Source of the DNA: an uncultured delta proteobacterium
GTDB lineage: Bacteria > Desulfobacterota > Desulfomonilia > Desulfomonilales > Desulfomonilaceae
DNA: 64,000 bases
Reading direction: 5' to 3'
NCBI GenBank assembly: GCA_963789265.1
Contig: CAWBKB010000006.1
Coordinates: 32,001 to 96,000 of the forward strand
Shown here one piece after another: positions 3,112 through 33,675 of the stretch. Under the pieces are notes generated by a model that saw only the letters and a program-made list of their open reading frames with translations, made no database searches and was not told the DNA's origin. The position numbers and the translations under genes were made by a program. Every line of letters starts with the position of its first letter. The stretch's first letter is position 1.

Positions 3112-4910
3112 CTATTGGCTCCCGACTACTTCGTGTTGCTGATGATAAGTCCTCTGTATCATGTCATTTAGAAAGCGCTCAGGGTTTTGAACAGCTTCCC
3201 GCGGTATGACGAATTCGTGCTCCTTGGTTCGTTCCATGACGAGCTTTAGGCCGTGATGGTAATTCTGGAAAATTTTACGACACACTATCAAAGCTTCTTC
3301 CGAACCGTTCAGCACCAATCCTATCAATTCTTGAAGAGCGTCCTGGGAGAATCGGATCTTAAGTTCGTAGAGGCCCTCAAACTCTTTCTCAAACGCGTGG
3401 ATCTCCGCCTCCACTTTGACAAAACGCTTATAGACCGTTTCCGGAGTGAGACCTTGCTTCATGGAAGCATCTACAATCGCTTCCAGTGCCCAATCATTGG
3501 CCGATTTACCACAGGCCCTTTCGAATTCCGCGCACCTGGATTGCAATTCCTCAAGTAGTTCTGCCCTCTCCTGGGCATCAATCTGTTCGAAAATTTCGCA
3601 TCTGGAAGGATGGGACTCGTCTTCAAGAAACTCTTGCAGAAGCTTTCTTGGATCCTCGACCAACTCTTCGGTGACGGCCAGACGCGTGATATCTGTTGAG
3701 GGCGGTACCTCTTTCAAAGCTTACGAGGATCTTCTCCATCGCGCTTATTAGAGCCCGCGCCCCGGTTTTTTGGTGGTGCGCAAGCTCGGCTACCTTCCTC
3801 AATGCCTCGTCTTTGAACCGGATGTCTATTCCGTAAGCCTTGAAATCCTGTTTCTTGGCCGTCACAACCGAGGAATAGCGGTTCTTCAAGATCTTGTACA
3901 AATCTTCTTCTTCAAGATCGTCTAGCACCGCGACGACAGGCAGGCGTCCGACAAATTCCGACTCGAAACCATATTCGATCAGGTCTTCCGCTCTGACCTC
4001 CCGCAAAAGGTCGGTCCTGCTTTCTTTTGATTTGAGGCTTGCTCCGAAGCCTAGTCCCTTCACGCGACAGTCGCTTGGAAATGATTTCATCCAGCCCGTT
4101 GAACGCTCCGGAAACTATGAAAAGAATATCCCGAGTGTTTATTGTCCGCTTCAGCCGCTTCCCTGTTTTTTGAAAATGAGCCGCAGCCTCCATAAGGGAT
4201 ACCGGATCATGAGCCACCTTAAGATCGACCTCGGTTTCCTCCATCGGCTTGAGCAGATTCCTCTGAACGCCGGTTCGCGACACATCAATCCCTATTATAT
4301 TTCCTGAAGAAGCAATTTTGTCGATTTCATCTACATATATGATTCCGTACCGGGCCTTTTCGATGTCACCGTCCGCTTCTTGCACCAGATCGCGGACAAG
4401 ATCCTCCACATCGCCTCCAACATAGCCTGTTTCGCTGAACTTTGTTGCGTCGCCTTTTACGAAAGGCACGCCTATTTTGCGGGCGATGAGCTTGATCAGA
4501 TAGGTCTTGCCCACGCCGGTCGGGCCGATAAGGATCATATTATTCTTTATTCTTCCTATTCCTTCGCGATCCTCATCCTCTCCTTTCTGTTGAAAATAAC
4601 GAATCCGGTTAAAATGGGTGCATATCTTGGTGGAAAGGATTTCTTTCGCTGAGTCCTGACGTATAACAAAACGGTCCAGATACTCATGGAGTTCCGCGGG
4701 CTTCATATCGAAGCGGATGTGGGATGGCTCTACATCCTGTTTAACCGTTGCCCCGCCGCCGGTCTCTTCTGCACCGGGCCACGGACCGATCTGAGTTCCC
4801 ATAACACGTATGCGATTACCGTACTTGTTAGCCAGAAACTCATTTATTTCTTTTTCGATCTCTTTCGGATCAGGCAAATTCGATCCCCTGGTTTCATCTT
4901 TATCATTCAT
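3112..4910 (-). CDS. clpX: ClpX-like AAA+ ATPase with C-terminal extension, split by frameshifts near 4070 and 3715
   Basis: Walker A GPTGVGKT, DATKFSETGYVGGDVE, YVDEIDKI, GVQRNLLK, LGF loop, EFVGRLPV and TGARAL, spread over three consecutive ORFs. Confidence 0.8.
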
Positions 4911-6450: not shown

Positions 6451-7560
6451 TTACGAGGTTTCCTCGGGCGCGGCTTGCTCCGTCAATGTACGAGGATGAG
6501 ACCCGTCCCTGTCAAGCATCTTCAGGAACTTGCCTATAAGCTTTCCCGTCAGATCCTTTTTTTCCGATTCAGTCATGCCTGCAACCGGAATCTGGCCGCC
6601 GGCCATCTCCTTGTGGCCCCCAGCAGATCCCGCCTTGCCCACCAGTCTGCGAATGGCCGCGCCGGCCCTGTGAATTCTCGACGTTGATCTCATTGAAAGG
6701 ATCAGCGCGTTCTTGTGCTCACCCAAGCACAAGGACCAGCTCACACCTTCAAGACGCAAAAGGAGATCGGCCAACTCGGGGATAATGGCCGCAGAATTAA
6801 TCTTCCCCAAACATGAAATCGCGACGTCCCGGTAAACAGTTGTTCGAGCCAGTCCTCTCTCGTAGTCTACAAAGTACTCGGCGGAAAGGGCCGGGCGCTC
6901 GATACCTGCGACCACGCGAGGGTTGGTCAGAGGCGACAGGTAGCTGAATGCATTAAAATCTGCCTTCGAGGTCGCCCTAAGCAGGGAACTGGTGTCCGTC
7001 TTAATACCATACAGTAGGGCATTGGCAAGTGACCGTGTGGGAGGTACGTCCGCGGCCACGAGATACTCCGTTATTATAGTGGATGTGGCACCGTATGTGG
7101 TACGAATATCGTGAAACGCTGCCTTGAAAGAATGCTTGCGCACGGGATGATGATCGATCACGATCAAAGGGGCTTCGCTCCGAGAGTCCAAAAGGTTGTT
7201 TCCGGTCCCCGGCTGAGCATCGACAAGAGCGACTCCAAAGTACTTGGACGCGTCGGCGCGTGACAGTTGCGTTGTCTTGATCCGCAGCCTCAGGATCATT
7301 GCCTTGTTCTCTGAGCGTGTGACCATGCCGCCATAGCCTATGACGGACCGGATCCCGAACTTTTTCAAAACCAGAAACTGGAAACCGTAAGCACTTGCTA
7401 TTGTATCGGGATCAGGATTGTTGTGGCATAATATCAACAGGCGCTTGCGCCCCGCCCCTTCAAGGACGGCTGCCAGATCGTTGAGTTTGCACGAGGATCT
7501 GCCGACGTCCCACTTTAGGGAATTCAGAACTCCGAAAGTTTGCCCTGATATTTTGGTCAA
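6451..7560 (-). CDS. DHH/DHHA1 family phosphoesterase (NrnA-like)
   Basis: HNNPDPD, LVD, IDHH, GIKTDT, SAGGH motifs. Confidence 0.9.
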   Translation of the reverse strand: MTKISGQTFGVLNSLKWDVGRSSCKLNDLAAVLEGAGRKRLLILCHNNPDPDTIASAYGFQFLVLKKFGIRSVIGYGGMVTRSENKAMILRLRIKTTQLSRADASKYFGVALVDAQPGTGNNLLDSRSEAPLIVIDHHPVRKHSFKAAFHDIRTTYGATSTIITEYLVAADVPPTRSLANALLYGIKTDTSSLLRATSKADFNAFSYLSPLTNPRVVAGIERPALSAEYFVDYERGLARTTVYRDVAISCLGKINSAAIIPELADLLLRLEGVSWSLCLGEHKNALILSMRSTSRIHRAGAAIRRLVGKAGSAGGHKEMAGGQIPVAGMTESEKKDLTGKLIGKFLKMLDRDGSHPRTLTEQAAPEETS

Positions 7561-7618: not shown

Positions 7619-9205
7619 TCACTCCTCTGGGTTCTCGTCGTTAAACGATGCCATCATCTTGCGGACGAGACGTTCATTGAGCACCATACCTCGAATTACC
7701 CCCCTGGAGCGTGCATAGCGATTTTCAATAAAAGCTTCGAGCTTGAGGTTTCTCTTCTCAGGGACTGTCATTATTCCCATCATGGTCAGCGTTTCCCCCG
7801 GAGGAGCCATAGTGTTCAAATCGGGAAACTCAGTACCCGTGAGTATCGGCATGAGCCTCTGTCCTTTGAGGAGCTTCAAGACCATGAATGCAGCGAACTG
7901 GGCCACCGCTTCCATTTGGAGGTGTCCCCCGAAAAGCGGCATACCTACGAAATGGTCCTTCAGTATAGGATTTTCGTCGGGTGTAGGGACCGTGAACCTG
8001 GCGAATCCCAGGAAGCCGTCATATATGTCACCTTGCTCCATTATGACTCGATCAAGAAAGAGGAAGTTCTCCCCGTACATGCTCAGTGTGCGCCGTATCT
8101 CATCTCTTTCATAGCACGTCCACTTGCGGTTGACCGGGGCCTTGCGAGGTGTTTCTTCACGCTGCTTTGCAGTGCCGATAGAGGTACATCCGGTGAGGTC
8201 TCCATAGTGGACCTGACGTACGTCCCCCGGCTGATAACGCCCACCTGAAATGAATTCTCTCACAACAATGATACCGGAGGCTTCCAGCACAAACTCGGAA
8301 ATCGTCCTCACTCCCTCCCTGAGAACTGAGAAAGACCCGTCTTTTCTCAGCCTGGAGAAGAACTTCTCCACAGTTTGGGAAAGCCTTCCGAGGTCCGAAG
8401 AACTCGCAATCGAACGCCATTCTTCCTCGAGAAATCTCTTCGAATCCTCCAGGAGCCGATTCCAGCCGCGAAGTCCGGCAAGCGATCGCTCCATCCTGGA
8501 GAATGCAGGCGCCAGGTCTTCGGAGATTCCCGACGTCTGCTGAAGATCTTGAAGATAGTTGTGGATGACCGCGATCTCAATGCCCGTGAAGAACTGAGAT
8601 GACTGGGTCCAGGCTTCGGGCAGCGCAGCAACCAGGGTTCGTTTTCCTTGACGGGCTAAACGCACGGCCAGATCTTCAAGGTGCTTTTTGGTATGAGAAA
8701 TGAAGTAGGGCAAGTCCCCGCGGTAAGTGAGGGCCATGAACTGCGTGTCTTCGTTAGTGAGGCCCGACAAGCCGCTTACCGTGTCGGAAAAGGAGTCGGC
8801 ATTGACATAGTAGACATTTCTTTTCACTGTCGTGGCCAGGTCAAAGAAGGTCTGCTTCCCCTTGAAGATGTCACCCACTGCCTTCATGACCGATGGCTGC
8901 CTGGGGAATCCACCGGCGACCGTATGTATGACGGCGTCGAGCCGCATTACACCCCTGTCCCTTAGTCGACCTTCGATCAGCGCTAAGTCGTCGAAAACCC
9001 GGCACCTCTTGTCAAAACTGTACCGGAGAGGTACGTCTATAAGCGTTGTACCCAGTTCCGTGAAGACAGCCCGTTCGCGTGGATCTTCGGGGTTCAGAGA
9101 AGTGCCGAAGACTTCAGCGCCCGCTGACACAGCGGCTTTAGCAATTCCCGCCCCATAGCCGCCTTCACGAGCGCCGATAATAAGAATATTCATTCCGTTG
9201 AGCAT
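7619..9205 (-). CDS. Putative fusion: N-terminal FabI/SDR-like reductase plus C-terminal FabZ-like hot-dog dehydratase
   Basis: N-term ILIIGAREGGYGAGIAKA, LDAVIHTVA, ALTYRG..Y.....K; C-term FLFLDRV and DHFVGMPLFGGHLQMEAVAQ. Start moved to ATG 9205 because the longer ORF runs into an upstream repeat. Confidence 0.7.
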   Translation of the reverse strand: MLNGMNILIIGAREGGYGAGIAKAAVSAGAEVFGTSLNPEDPRERAVFTELGTTLIDVPLRYSFDKRCRVFDDLALIEGRLRDRGVMRLDAVIHTVAGGFPRQPSVMKAVGDIFKGKQTFFDLATTVKRNVYYVNADSFSDTVSGLSGLTNEDTQFMALTYRGDLPYFISHTKKHLEDLAVRLARQGKRTLVAALPEAWTQSSQFFTGIEIAVIHNYLQDLQQTSGISEDLAPAFSRMERSLAGLRGWNRLLEDSKRFLEEEWRSIASSSDLGRLSQTVEKFFSRLRKDGSFSVLREGVRTISEFVLEASGIIVVREFISGGRYQPGDVRQVHYGDLTGCTSIGTAKQREETPRKAPVNRKWTCYERDEIRRTLSMYGENFLFLDRVIMEQGDIYDGFLGFARFTVPTPDENPILKDHFVGMPLFGGHLQMEAVAQFAAFMVLKLLKGQRLMPILTGTEFPDLNTMAPPGETLTMMGIMTVPEKRNLKLEAFIENRYARSRGVIRGMVLNERLVRKMMASFNDENPEE

Positions 9206-9354: not shown

Positions 9355-9659
9355 CATTCACTAAGCCGCGGAAAGAGATTGTCATTGCGAGTCCCGCTTC
9401 CCGCGCATAGGCGTTAAGTTAAGGCAATTTCGTTCCTTTTCAGGAGGTCCATGCAGGCGGAGGGCGATCAAAGTCCCCCTGTTCTAAAGGGGGATTTAGG
9501 GGTATTTTCAAATAGTTATCCCAAAATCCCCCCTGGCCCCCCTTTACGAAAGGGGGGAACCCCGCGTTTCGCGGGGGTTAAGTTAACGCCAATGCGCGGG
9601 ACGCGGGATTTCACTCCTCGCAATGACAAGCTGCAGAAGATCCCCCGCGTAAGTGAACG
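9355..9659. repeat. CATTCACTTA-bounded repeat element, interrupted by a second MITE
   Basis: Ends and internal sequence match the uninterrupted copy at 24268-24404. Confidence 0.7.
9407..9593. mobile_element. About 187-bp MITE, copy 1
   Basis: Inverted ends ATAGGCGTTAAGTTA / TAAGTTAACGCCAAT with GCGC on both flanks; near-identical inverted copy at 19661-19845. Confidence 0.85.
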
Positions 9660-11814: not shown

Positions 11815-13161
11815 ATTCAGATACGACTAATTGCTCCTCAGCGATGGCTCGAGTGGTTTGCAGAGAGTTCCTGCCTTATTGCCGCATCGTATATTGTTGC
11901 GTTCTTGGTCCTTCTCGTAAATGTCCTCGGTACGGGATTCTCAGGCGTAGAGATCAGCCCGTACAGGATGGTTCTCGTCTTAGCGGCGGCTATCCCTGCG
12001 GGGTTTTTATTCGTCTTTTCAACCTTCGGGCTGATATCGTACTTCATCTTCATGCCTTCGATTACCCATGACGGCCACCTGTTTTCGCGCGTTCATGGGA
12101 CTCACCTGATTCATCCGGTGACCACGTCGATTTTGCTGGGCCTCGCGGCTCTTTGCATTTACACGGGCAGCATGCTCGCCTGGGCGACTTGGGCTGTCTT
12201 CCTGGCAATCTACCTGCTTCAGACCACCCTCATTCTAAAACGAGTCAGTGAAGAAAATCGTGTAAACAGCTTGGAAGGACCGAGTGCCGGCAAATCGCTG
12301 TTGTTGCTCAACCTGATCCTTGGAGGCGAACTCGTCACTGTGGCGGCCGGTGCCAAACCCTTGCCGCCCTGGCGGCTGGACACCCTTCCCCAAGACACAT
12401 GGATCGTGGATGTTCGCACAAAGCCCGAATTCTATTGGAACCGGCTGCAGGCCGCGGAGAATTATCCGTGGGGATCGGGTGTGATAGAAGCGGCAAAAGA
12501 CAAGTCGAAAGAACGTCCGGTGCTCGTCGCCTGCTTTTCGGGCCACCGATCCCCTGCAGTTGCGGTAATGCTTCGAAAACTGGGCTTTAGGACCGTTTAT
12601 AATTTGAATTGGGGGATTCTCTATTTGATTCTATTGGAACGCGGTAAGAAGAATACAGGACCGTTCAGCCTCACCCGGCCTCATCGAGATCCTCAACGGC
12701 GGGGTGAGGATTTCAGGGGAATATCAGTTGGATATATCACCTTTGCTCTACTGACGCTGATCGTCGCTCCATTGGAACATGTCTTTGAGCCGACAGTAGT
12801 TTCCGCATTGCAACAGATCATCGGGGCATTACTCGGGCTCGGAGGACTTTTGCTGGGCCTCTTGAGCTTCAGAGCACTAGGGAGGAATTTTCGCGTATTT
12901 GCGGCGCCCAGGAGAAGCGGGACCCTCATTACCTCGGGCGTGTACGCCAAGGTTCGTCACCCCATGTACACCGGGGTCATCATGAGTCTGGGGGGGTATA
13001 CGCTTTATTTTGGGAGCTTGTGGGCATTTCCTTTCTGGCTGGGGTGCACAATCTTTTATCTGATCAAGGTCGTGAAAGAAGAAAGGCTGCTCGTGGAGCA
13101 TTATCCCGAATACGAGAACTATCGTAAGCGTTCATGGCGCCTCGTCCCCTTCATTTTTTGA
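11815..13161 (+). CDS. Membrane protein with central rhodanese domain and C-terminal ICMT/PEMT-family methyltransferase domain
   Basis: DVRTKPEF and LVACFSGHRS (rhodanese active-site Cys); LITSGVYAKVRHPMY...EERLL (ICMT family). First standard start is TTG 11905, but the frame is open from an SD-preceded ATT at 11815. Confidence 0.75.
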   Translation: MQIRLIAPQRWLEWFAESSCLIAASYIVAFLVLLVNVLGTGFSGVEISPYRMVLVLAAAIPAGFLFVFSTFGLISYFIFMPSITHDGHLFSRVHGTHLIHPVTTSILLGLAALCIYTGSMLAWATWAVFLAIYLLQTTLILKRVSEENRVNSLEGPSAGKSLLLLNLILGGELVTVAAGAKPLPPWRLDTLPQDTWIVDVRTKPEFYWNRLQAAENYPWGSGVIEAAKDKSKERPVLVACFSGHRSPAVAVMLRKLGFRTVYNLNWGILYLILLERGKKNTGPFSLTRPHRDPQRRGEDFRGISVGYITFALLTLIVAPLEHVFEPTVVSALQQIIGALLGLGGLLLGLLSFRALGRNFRVFAAPRRSGTLITSGVYAKVRHPMYTGVIMSLGGYTLYFGSLWAFPFWLGCTIFYLIKVVKEERLLVEHYPEYENYRKRSWRLVPFIF

Positions 13162-31158: not shown

Positions 31159-33675
31159 TTATTCCTCATCCTCAGGATCGCCGAGACTCACCGGAATGGG
31201 ACTCACCTTCCAGATTTCATCGCAATACTGTCGAATCGTGCGATCTGATGAGAATTTACCCATTCGAGCTGCATTGAGGATCGACATTCGTGTCCAGCTA
31301 TCGCTATCCCGGTAAGTCTGACTGACACGATCCTGACAGTCCACGTACGATTGATAATCGGCGAACAGAAGGTATTCGTCATGATAGAGCAGCGAATCAA
31401 CAAGAGGCTTGAAAAGTTGAGAATCCCCAGCAGAATAATGTCCTGATGCGATGAGGTCAATGACGCCTTTCAATTGATCATTCCCTTCGTAAAAAGCACG
31501 TGCATGATAACCTCGAGATTTAAGATCGTATACCTCCTTGGCCGTGAGACCGAAAAGGAAGAAATTCTCAGGTCCTACTTCTTCTCTGATCTCGACATTG
31601 GCGCCGTCCAAAGTGCCGATTGTGAGCGCTCCATTCATCGAGAACTTCATGTTTCCGGTTCCTGAAGCCTCCTCTCCGGCTGTGGAGATCTGTTCGGAGA
31701 GGTCAGCAGCAGGGTAAATCAATTGCGAGTTTTTTACGTTGAAGTTGGGGAAGAAGACCACTTTGATGCGATCTCGCACGTCCGGATCGTTGTTCACGAC
31801 GTTGGCTACAGCGTTGATCAGTCTAATGATCATCTTCGCCATAAAATAACCTGGTGCGGCTTTTCCTCCGAAAACAAAGGTTCGTGGCACAATCTCCACG
31901 TTGGGGTTCTGCTTTATCCGATTGTACAATGTCAGAATGTGCAGCACGTTGAGGTGTTGCCGCTTGTATTCGTGAAAACGTTTTACCTGGATATCGAAAA
32001 GTGAGTCCGGGGCGACGACAATGCCCGTACGATTACGAATTGCTTCCGCCAGATCAGTCTTGTTGAGCCTCTTGATGCTACCCCACTCGGTCTTGAACTC
32101 CTTGTCCTCGGCAAAAGTCTCGAGCTTCCGGAGTTGCTCCAGGTCCGTGATCCAGCCGTCTCCGATCCTGCCTGTGATCAAGTCAGCAAGTCTGGGGTTA
32201 CTCAATGCAATAAAGCGCCGGGGAGTCACGCCGTTGGTTTTGTTGCTGAACCTTTCCGGAAAGAATTCGTAAAAGTCGCGGAGCACGTGCTCTTTAAGTA
32301 ACTCCGTGTGCAACTCGGCCACGCCATTTATCGAGAAGCTGCCAACACATGCGAGGTTCGCCATGCGCACGTATTTTTCTCCAGTTTCGTCGATCAGAGA
32401 CATCCGGGTCGCTCGATGGTCGTCTCTCGGGTACCGAGTTCGAACTTTTTCCAGAAATCGGTGATTGATCTCGAAAATGATTTCCACATGTCTGGGAAGA
32501 AGCGACTGAAACAGTGGTAAGGGCCATTTTTCCAGGGCTTCGGGCAACAAGGTATGATTTGTGTAACCAAAGGTGTTTTGGGTCACATCCCAGGCCTCGT
32601 CCCATCCCAAACCGTGCTCGTCAATGAGAAGACGCATTAATTCGGGTATTGCCAATGCAGGATGTGTGTCGTTCAGTTGGACTGAAAAGAGTTTATGAAA
32701 GTCCTTGGGAAGTAAATTGCCCATAGACAATATACGGAGCATATCCTGTAATGAACAGGACACAAGAAAATACTGCTGTTCCAACCTGAGCTGTTTTCCC
32801 TGGGCCGGTTCGTCGTTGGGATAGAGCACTTTTGTGATGTTTTCCGAATAGATCTTCCGATCGACAGCACCGTAGTAATCCCCTATATTGAATGCCCTAA
32901 AATCGAAAGATTCGATTGCTTCGGCTTTCCAAAGCCTCAAAGTGCTACAGGTGTTCACCTTGTATCCAAGAACAGGCGTATCGTAAGCAACTCCTCTGAC
33001 CACTCGCTCCGGAATCCATCGGACCTGAAGAGATCCATCATCCGATTGAACATGCCCCGTATGGCCACCGAACTTAACTTCATAAGCAATTTCCGATCTA
33101 TGACTCTCCCATGGATTTCCTAAAGATAACCACTTATCCGTGGTTTCAACCTGTTTTCCGTCTTGAATACTCTGGGAAAAGATCCCGAATTCATAACGTA
33201 TTCCGTAACCTATCGAGGGAATTTCCAGAGTGGCAAGAGAGTCCAAAAAACAGGCAGCCAGTCGACCAAGTCCCCCGTTTCCCAATCCGGGTTCCGGTTC
33301 GTGCTCCAAAAGGACATTCCAATCTTCTCCTAACTCCTCGGCACCTTTACGCACTTCTTCATAAATCCCGAGATTAATCAAATTATTCGCAAGCTGTGGT
33401 CCAATTAAGAACTCGGCGGAAAGATAGCTTACCGCACGAAGCCCCCCTTTAAGGTAAGTTTCGCCACTTCGAACCCATCGGTGAAGCAAACGATCCTTTA
33501 CCATGTAAGCGAGGGCCATGTACTTGTCGTTCAGTGTAGCTATTGCTGGAATTTTTCCTTGGGAGTATTTCAGGTGCTCCCGAACACCACTTTTGATTGC
33601 CCCGATGCTTAAGCCTGTACGACTCACCGAATCTCTTTCGATTTCACTCCGTCCGGATTTTTTTTGCATGACCAA
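31159..33675 (-). CDS. glgP: Glycogen/starch phosphorylase
   Basis: GLGNGGLGRLAACF, QLNDTHP, KRFHEYKRQ, EASGTGNMKF. Confidence 0.97.
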   Translation of the reverse strand: MVMQKKSGRSEIERDSVSRTGLSIGAIKSGVREHLKYSQGKIPAIATLNDKYMALAYMVKDRLLHRWVRSGETYLKGGLRAVSYLSAEFLIGPQLANNLINLGIYEEVRKGAEELGEDWNVLLEHEPEPGLGNGGLGRLAACFLDSLATLEIPSIGYGIRYEFGIFSQSIQDGKQVETTDKWLSLGNPWESHRSEIAYEVKFGGHTGHVQSDDGSLQVRWIPERVVRGVAYDTPVLGYKVNTCSTLRLWKAEAIESFDFRAFNIGDYYGAVDRKIYSENITKVLYPNDEPAQGKQLRLEQQYFLVSCSLQDMLRILSMGNLLPKDFHKLFSVQLNDTHPALAIPELMRLLIDEHGLGWDEAWDVTQNTFGYTNHTLLPEALEKWPLPLFQSLLPRHVEIIFEINHRFLEKVRTRYPRDDHRATRMSLIDETGEKYVRMANLACVGSFSINGVAELHTELLKEHVLRDFYEFFPERFSNKTNGVTPRRFIALSNPRLADLITGRIGDGWITDLEQLRKLETFAEDKEFKTEWGSIKRLNKTDLAEAIRNRTGIVVAPDSLFDIQVKRFHEYKRQHLNVLHILTLYNRIKQNPNVEIVPRTFVFGGKAAPGYFMAKMIIRLINAVANVVNNDPDVRDRIKVVFFPNFNVKNSQLIYPAADLSEQISTAGEEASGTGNMKFSMNGALTIGTLDGANVEIREEVGPENFFLFGLTAKEVYDLKSRGYHARAFYEGNDQLKGVIDLIASGHYSAGDSQLFKPLVDSLLYHDEYLLFADYQSYVDCQDRVSQTYRDSDSWTRMSILNAARMGKFSSDRTIRQYCDEIWKVSPIPVSLGDPEDEE

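Follow-up and report, generated by a model that had tools for sequence, protein, structure and literature searches.

The window analysed here is a 64,000-nucleotide stretch of DNA from an uncultured delta proteobacterium of the family Desulfomonilaceae (Desulfobacterota; Desulfomonilia) and corresponds to positions 32,001 to 96,000 of contig CAWBKB010000006.1 (C6:32001-96000 of the genome designated G000; assembly GCA_963789265.1; 6.06 Mb, 95.6% complete). The gene under study occupies positions 7619 to 9205 of the window. It encodes a protein in which an N-terminal domain of the enoyl-acyl carrier protein (ACP) reductase type is followed by a C-terminal hot-dog domain resembling FabZ, the dehydratase of type II fatty acid synthesis (FAS II), and is named hereafter the enoyl reductase-dehydratase (ER-DH) fusion. 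An initial annotation of the window had described a single uninterrupted open reading frame (ORF) of about 528 amino acids (aa) in this interval, and translation from an ATG at position 9205 bears this out. The extent had been placed exactly, but the orientation needs correction: the gene lies on the minus strand, and the plus-strand frame over the same interval is full of stops. The fusion frame stays open further upstream to another ATG at position 9385, which would give a protein of 588 aa. Since homologues are mostly 521 to 540 aa long and their alignments start with residue 1 of the 528-aa version, position 9205 is likely the genuine start, and the upstream ATG finds no support among the homologues. 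The motifs that had been quoted from the protein are all present. LDAVIHTVAGG covers residues 89-99, LTYRGDLPYFISHTKK holds the Tyr167-x5-Lys173 pair, and the C-terminal half contains FLFLDRV together with DHFVGMPLFGGHLQMEAVAQ, which carries His418 and Glu432. All four residues are retained in each of the 40 homologues aligned.

The full-length AlphaFold2 (AF2) model, computed from a 40-sequence alignment, is of good quality, with a mean predicted local distance difference test score (pLDDT) of 89.0 and a predicted TM-score of 0.84. In this model, the N-terminal domain consists of a Rossmann core of the short-chain dehydrogenase/reductase (SDR) type with a helical lid (helices at about residues 209-320). 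Its best Foldseek matches in the PDB are the two FabMG structures 6kia_A (E 1.9e-14, TMt 0.57) and 6ki9, followed mainly by dozens of FabI structures with TMt values of 0.58 to 0.68; the expectation that this half would model as an SDR-type enoyl reductase is thus borne out. In agreement with the structural ranking, the Pfam family PF22046 (enoyl-ACP reductase FabMG) matches with 38.8 bits against a cut-off of 27 (E 6.6e-10). A review describes FabMG as an SDR-type enoyl-ACP reductase of 438 residues, obtained from a soil-metagenome clone resistant to triclosan; its signature is Yx5K where FabI has Yx6K, and its variants Y260F and K266A lose complementation of E. coli fabI(ts) (PMC9260719). 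When the fusion is aligned by MAFFT to two bona fide FabMG proteins (matching PF22046 at E 1e-145 and 1e-156), Tyr167 and Lys173 of the fusion fall on the Yx5K of both, and the motifs HTxAGGxPR and PExxTxSS are common to all three proteins. Because the Pfam cut-off, the Yx5K motif and the fold concur, the N-terminal half is, as judged from sequence and model, an enoyl-reductase-type SDR of the FabMG branch, of which it would be a divergent member with a predicted activity of the same type. The designation as FabI-like proposed at first has to be revised accordingly, with FabI coming second: no FabI family is found among the Pfam or NCBIfam matches of the protein and the motif spacing is not that of FabI, so that the likeness is one of general fold, with a reaction that is presumably the same. 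Compared with FabMG itself, an unfused protein of 438 aa, the fusion has a shorter reductase domain (about 340 aa) that is extended by the C-terminal hot dog. Two FabMG insertions are missing from it, one of about 45 residues after the second strand and one of about 15 residues before the catalytic tyrosine.

The same half could alternatively be viewed as a 3-hydroxyacyl or 3-ketoacyl dehydrogenase/reductase, which would turn the whole protein into a relative of multifunctional enzyme type 2 (MFE-2) acting on CoA thioesters during the anaerobic degradation of fatty acids or aromatics. Fusions of an SDR with a hot-dog domain are indeed common among such proteins, and Desulfomonilaceae genomes are rich in genes of the beta-oxidation type. 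In the ESM Atlas, the cluster of the fusion itself contains 63 members from Thermodesulfobacteriota, and the next clusters are exclusively SDR + MaoC proteins, whose scores of 0.78 to 0.86 (below 0.9) make them leads only. In contrast, the YxxxK motif of classical SDRs is missing and replaced by Yx5K, which argues against a classical ketoreductase, and both the best structural matches (FabMG, then FabI) and the Pfam assignment point to enoyl reductases. Moreover, the hot-dog half resembles the ACP-dependent FabZ with its His/Glu pair, unlike MaoC; the SDR + MaoC proteins represent a known fusion that differs in kind from an SDR-type enoyl reductase joined to a FabZ-like domain. Taken together, we consider a degradative CoA-thioester enzyme decidedly improbable.

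The two domains are connected, within one continuous reading frame, by a linker that is poorly conserved and modelled without regular secondary structure. Residues 354-528 modelled alone reach a pLDDT of 84.5, and the top Foldseek matches listed for this hot-dog model are FabZ enzymes from C. jejuni, P. falciparum, E. coli and anammox bacteria, with E values of 2.4e-7 to 5e-6 and TMt of 0.70 to 0.83 (E 2.4e-7 and TMt 0.81 for 3d6x_B). Two entries for the Yersinia pestis 3-hydroxydecanoyl-ACP dehydratase, which we take to be a FabA-type enzyme, appear at ranks 30 and 50. A direct sequence match to the P. falciparum FabZ 1z6b is also found (E 0.004), in which His418 and Glu432 align with the catalytic HF...E.A.Q segment. 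The assignment of the C-terminus as FabZ-like with both catalytic residues retained is therefore upheld by structural ranking and residue invariance. With FabZ (PDB 3D6X, 1Z6B, 6N3P), the domain shares the single hot-dog fold and the placement of His and Glu in the HF...PG...E.A.Q context, although the usual P-G before the central helix is G-G in the fusion. It also differs from FabZ in standing behind a reductase and in being encoded outside the lpxD-fabZ-lpxA position.

FabZ is known as a dimer with its catalytic residues at the interface, and a similar arrangement is predicted for the fusion. A homodimer prediction with two copies of residues 355-528 scored 0.84 against 0.00 for the best of three controls, and passed a mark that 20 of 30 proteins solved as one-chain pairs also attain, compared with 1 of 23 solved as single chains. 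The prediction runs have at least 97% of their contacts in common, with a partner pLDDT of at least 84. In these models, the putative interface includes residues 416-420 and 431-432, hence His418 and Glu432, as would be expected for a FabZ-type active site formed by two chains. Since FabZ dimers have already been solved, the high score may reflect mere likeness to them. The coordinates of all features are collected in Table 1.

Table 1. Coordinates of the fusion gene, its domains and sites, and other genes discussed in the text (window positions unless stated otherwise)
Feature	Position	Strand	Basis or remark
ER-DH fusion, coding sequence (528 aa)	7622..9205	minus	Stop codon 7619-7621; homologue lengths and alignment
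Divergent FabMG-type SDR enoyl-ACP reductase domain, predicted (residues 1-341)	8183..9205	minus	Pfam, AF2, Foldseek, motifs
Catalytic Tyr167-x5-Lys173 (YFISHTK), FabMG-type Yx5K	8687..8707	minus	Invariant in 40/40; codons verified
Interdomain linker (residues 339-361, GCTSIGTAKQREETPRKAPVNRK)	8123..8191	minus	Variable alignment columns; model
FabZ-like hot-dog 3-hydroxyacyl-ACP dehydratase domain, predicted (residues 362-528)	7622..8122	minus	Pfam, Foldseek, model
FabZ-type active-site segment HFVGMPLFGGHLQME, His418 (7952-7954) to Glu432 (7910-7912)	7910..7954	minus	Codons verified
DHH/DHHA1 phosphoesterase gene (context only)	6451..7560	minus	Pfam DHH and DHHA1
NMO/FabK-like gene (384 aa) followed by MFE-2-type double hot-dog hydratase gene (278 aa)	G000:C1:1895062-1897130 (L027 6063-8131)		

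The joining of the two domains in one gene is a conserved feature of the family, which consists of sulfate-reducing bacteria. Among 61 sampled Desulfomonilaceae genomes, 56 carry the fusion, including 34 of the 36 high-quality ones, and 24 of 26 genera are represented. The gene is single-copy, and its copies come from independent assemblies, display 56-91% identity and are almost always encoded by a single ORF. Among the few split-looking exceptions, G035 contains one in-frame TGA, and the copies of G027 and G034 lie at contig ends. A word-indexed protein search returned 148 matches at E<=0.001; the 120 matches listed are nearly all full-length, with 58-91% identity and E values down to 0, and several are named as proteins of Desulfomonilaceae or of Desulfomonile metagenome-assembled genomes. 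The automatic names given to homologues by the Joint Genome Institute (JGI) already include both functions. The rarity of the architecture and the few split relatives could evoke an assembly or frameshift artefact uniting two genes. Such an origin is almost inconceivable, since a full-length single frame is found across 24 genera in independent assemblies, in nearly all of the 56 genomes, and in about 120 listed database proteins. The initial annotation had asked whether homologues would be found as two genes; they are single genes, and sequence, fold and distribution agree on a genuine, conserved combination of an enoyl reductase with a FabZ-like dehydratase.

Outside this family, the architecture is scarce. 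In a phylum-wide sample of 301 genomes, the six with the fusion are all Desulfomonilaceae, and none of the 294 genomes from other families of the phylum contains it. An exhaustive HMMER search over 1.84 billion representatives yielded only 38 matches, which comprise one full-length cluster representative, fragments, two distant fused proteins, P0129 (553 aa, 29% identity) and P0156 (504 aa), and stand-alone relatives, namely a few hot dogs and FabMG-type or N-domain proteins. No adjacent two-gene ancestor was found among these matches. For either half, the closest nameable stand-alone relative comes from bacteria of the candidate phyla radiation (CPR). The hot-dog relative P0148 is named Ca. 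Azambacteria, and the N-domain relative P0144 (363 aa) is encoded on a Ca. Peribacteria contig (L023, 4587-7155), divergently to a 420-aa ORF; no hot-dog gene adjoins it in that locus. Our literature search, whose coverage did not extend to the original report of the FabMG structure, found no description of this ER-DH architecture.

As fabD, fabG, acpP, fabF, lpxA and lpxD are all present in the host genome, 3-hydroxyacyl-ACP must be made. There, lpxD and lpxA abut with no fabZ in between, and the sole match to FabZ (TIGR01750) or to the FabA domain (PF07977) in the genome is the fusion gene. The E. coli FabZ sequence gave no tblastn match in this genome, and E. coli FabI retrieved only generic SDRs of about 25% identity that are closer to FabG; no FabV domain was found there. 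This situation extends to the family. Canonical FabZ exceeds its cut-off in 1 of 61 Desulfomonilaceae genomes, where it sits on a small contig of an assembly of 1100 contigs from which the fusion is absent, and the remaining weak FabZ matches of the family lie, all but one, inside the fusion gene. In the phylum sample, FabZ is detected in 270 of 301 genomes at E<=1e-10. A FabI-like gene (at least 36% identity to E. coli FabI) is present in 3 of the 61 family genomes. FabK-like genes at E<=1e-60 are found in 9 of 20 family genomes (plus the present one) versus 20 of 20 in a sister family, and the FabMG-like domain (PF22046) displays the opposite pattern, with 19 of 20 versus 1 of 20. With the queries used, the latter domain is the only type of enoyl reductase in 10 of the 20 family genomes, FabV and FabL not having been searched family-wide.

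No canonical FabH was found in this genome either (best TIGR00747 score of 45.5 bits against a cut-off of 292), and tblastn searches with E. coli FabH and PlsX gave no matches. The fab cluster reads yceD-fabD-fabG-acpP-fabF-rpiB-glyA, without rpmF-plsX-fabH. From these gene absences, FAS II initiation may be non-canonical too in this lineage.

On these grounds, we regard it as moderately probable that the fusion is a bifunctional FAS II enzyme that replaces the separate FabZ and FabI/FabK in Desulfomonilaceae. In the mechanism that we propose, the hot-dog domains of two chains would dimerise, and His418 from one chain with Glu432 from the other would convert (3R)-hydroxyacyl-ACP into trans-2-enoyl-ACP, provided that ACP is the carrier. 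The FabMG-type SDR domain would then reduce the enoyl-ACP with NAD(P)H, Tyr167 acting as proton donor and Lys173 holding the ribose of the cofactor. In FAS II, the FabZ reaction is reversible and drawn forward by the enoyl reductase. Because of this reversibility, fusing both domains would couple dehydration to the reduction that pulls it, possibly with channelling between the domains.

Besides this housekeeping role, the fusion may possess both activities and serve a specialised or secondary lipid, the housekeeping steps being carried out by other enzymes shared with the sister family. This possibility had been raised in the initial annotation. It fits with a gene located away from the fab cluster among unrelated neighbours, with the FabK-like paralogues of the genome, and with a sister family that runs fabD-fabG-acpP-fabF without a recognisable FabZ or fusion. 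Furthermore, three own-genome loci combining ketosynthase (KS), acyltransferase (AT) and enoyl reductase (ER) could make use of trans-acting partners. On the other side, the fusion is single-copy and near-universal (56 of 61 genomes), unlike the usual accessory lipid clusters, and PKS-like (polyketide synthase) genes accompany it in none of the five loci inspected. In addition, half of the 20 family genomes contain no other type of enoyl reductase with the queries used, and the one candidate considered as another dehydratase, a double hot-dog protein of the MFE-2 type, is distributed patchily (3 of 6 sampled family genomes). A function restricted to specialised lipids thus appears unlikely to us, and a housekeeping role is probably the better explanation, since the family lacks canonical FabZ (1/61) and mostly FabI (3/61).

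The KS-AT-(FabK-like ER) loci of G000 are large and resemble PKS or polyunsaturated fatty acid (PUFA) synthases. They are located on contigs C1 (~690.9-696 kb), C5 (~82.7-88.4 kb) and C7 (~169-177 kb), with ORFs of 1288 to 1758 aa, and one PS-DH domain is found near the C7 locus.

Several observations weigh against a housekeeping replacement of FabZ and FabI/FabK, some of them at the level of the protein itself. Although the cut-off of PF22046 is passed, the match spans only profile positions 257-316 (60 of 431), and the structural alignment to FabMG 6KIA has 17% identity. On the hot-dog side, PF07977 remains just under its cut-off in hmmscan (20.9 versus 23 bits), its score in the six-frame genome search being 23.3 bits for the same domain and the same cut-off. 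The FabZ equivalog profiles stay far below theirs (TIGR01750, 19.4 versus 155.15 bits; NF000582, 24 versus 113). In sequence terms, the domain is for this reason FabZ-like and no FabZ equivalog. Other points concern the genome: the fusion has no lipid-related neighbours, and possible substitutes exist. The latter include FabK/NMO-like (nitronate monooxygenase) paralogues scoring 259 and 226 bits against a cut-off of 453 in non-fab contexts, about 12 MaoC-type hot-dog matches, and an adjacent pair formed by an NMO gene and an MFE-2-type double hot-dog gene (Table 1). Finally, both the fusion and FabZ are missing from G016, a family genome of 99% completeness.

The most serious objection comes from the sister family (f2 of the same class, e.g. 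G103, L029), for which 20 genomes of 93-100% completeness were considered. There, fabF is present in all three genomes checked, and the cluster layout yceD-fabD-fabG-fabF-rpiB-glyA, inspected in one genome, is as in the present one. Among the 20 genomes, a FabZ/FabA domain is limited to a single 34-residue scrap and a FabMG-like gene to a single weak case, and no fusion was found. As the sister family possesses FabF with neither FabZ nor the fusion, another dehydratase that is neither of these must exist in the class, and it might serve Desulfomonilaceae too. No candidate dehydratase was found in the sister-family fab cluster or around the best FabK-like genes.

The double hot-dog protein was considered as such an alternative dehydratase. 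Its gene is present in 63 of the 301 genomes of the phylum sample, most of them from FabZ-containing lineages, and in 3 of the 6 Desulfomonilaceae genomes sampled; as this pattern does not mirror that of FabZ loss, the protein is disfavoured as the missing enzyme. The 278-aa hydratase has a FAS1_DH_region match, and its gene pair lies beside acyl-CoA dehydrogenase and FadB-like genes. This ER/DH-like pair of an NMO/FabK-like protein and a double hot dog recalls the enzyme types of the fungal FAS I.

Integrating these elements, we tentatively propose a broader scenario, which we hold to be possible rather than probable. Desulfomonilaceae would have dispensed with separate FabZ and FabI/FabK and would perform the last two steps of each FAS II elongation cycle on the ER-DH didomain, with the enoyl-ACP passed directly between both sites, the sister family hiding another FAS II dehydratase. 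That FabZ can function as a fused domain is illustrated by the LpxC-FabZ bifunctional protein (NCBIfam NF009667). This latter links lipid A synthesis to fatty acid synthesis, whereas the present fusion joins two steps of the cycle. A dehydratase and an enoyl reductase on one chain are also typical of type I FAS and PKS with their DH-ER-KR (ketoreductase) series. In those megasynthases, the DH is a double hot dog, the ER is of the medium-chain dehydrogenase/reductase type (FabK/TIM-barrel-type in fungi), and the DH comes before the ER. In the fusion, an ER of the SDR type precedes a single hot-dog domain.

If confirmed, a lineage-wide natural fusion of two consecutive steps would constitute a new FAS II architecture, and a natural intermediate between the dissociated type II and the megasynthase-type organisation. 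FabMG, hitherto represented by one soil-metagenome clone and its structure, would also gain a physiological setting, in bacteria that can be cultivated, Desulfomonile for example. The fusion offers a test case for asking whether coupling a reversible dehydration to a reduction brings a kinetic advantage. In the same vein, our survey reveals a whole class of Desulfobacterota without canonical FabZ (and, in the present genome, without FabH), which points to undiscovered FAS II components.

Concerning the surroundings of the gene, the DHH/DHHA1 phosphoesterase gene begins 58 nucleotides downstream of the fusion and adjoins it in four of four loci from other genera with sufficient flank. Despite this conservation, it is probably unlinked to the fusion in function. 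Upstream are an opposite-strand ORF with no family assignment and then a 2-hydroxyacid dehydrogenase gene. With such neighbours, and with fabD-fabG-acpP-fabF on a different contig, the fusion lies outside any fab cluster, as had been noted from the start. Three sequencing runs, all from one study, contain this stretch of DNA, and none of them is listed as RNA.

Other parts of the window display a few additional features. On the minus strand at 3112-4910, a ClpX/ClpB-like AAA+ ATPase is apparently split over overlapping frames, with AAA_2 at 3912-4910 and ClpB_D2-small at 3623-4090, followed by a 201-aa ORF with no family at 3112-3717. Such an arrangement points to a frameshift or an error of sequencing around 3912-4090. 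On the plus strand, a 499-aa ORF with no Pfam family (1500-2999) begins with a signal-like segment and contains a long low-complexity region rich in Gln, Tyr and Ala, with QQAYQ repeats. Finally, a 418-aa membrane protein encoded on the plus strand at 11905-13161 combines rhodanese and PEMT/ICMT-type methyltransferase domains.

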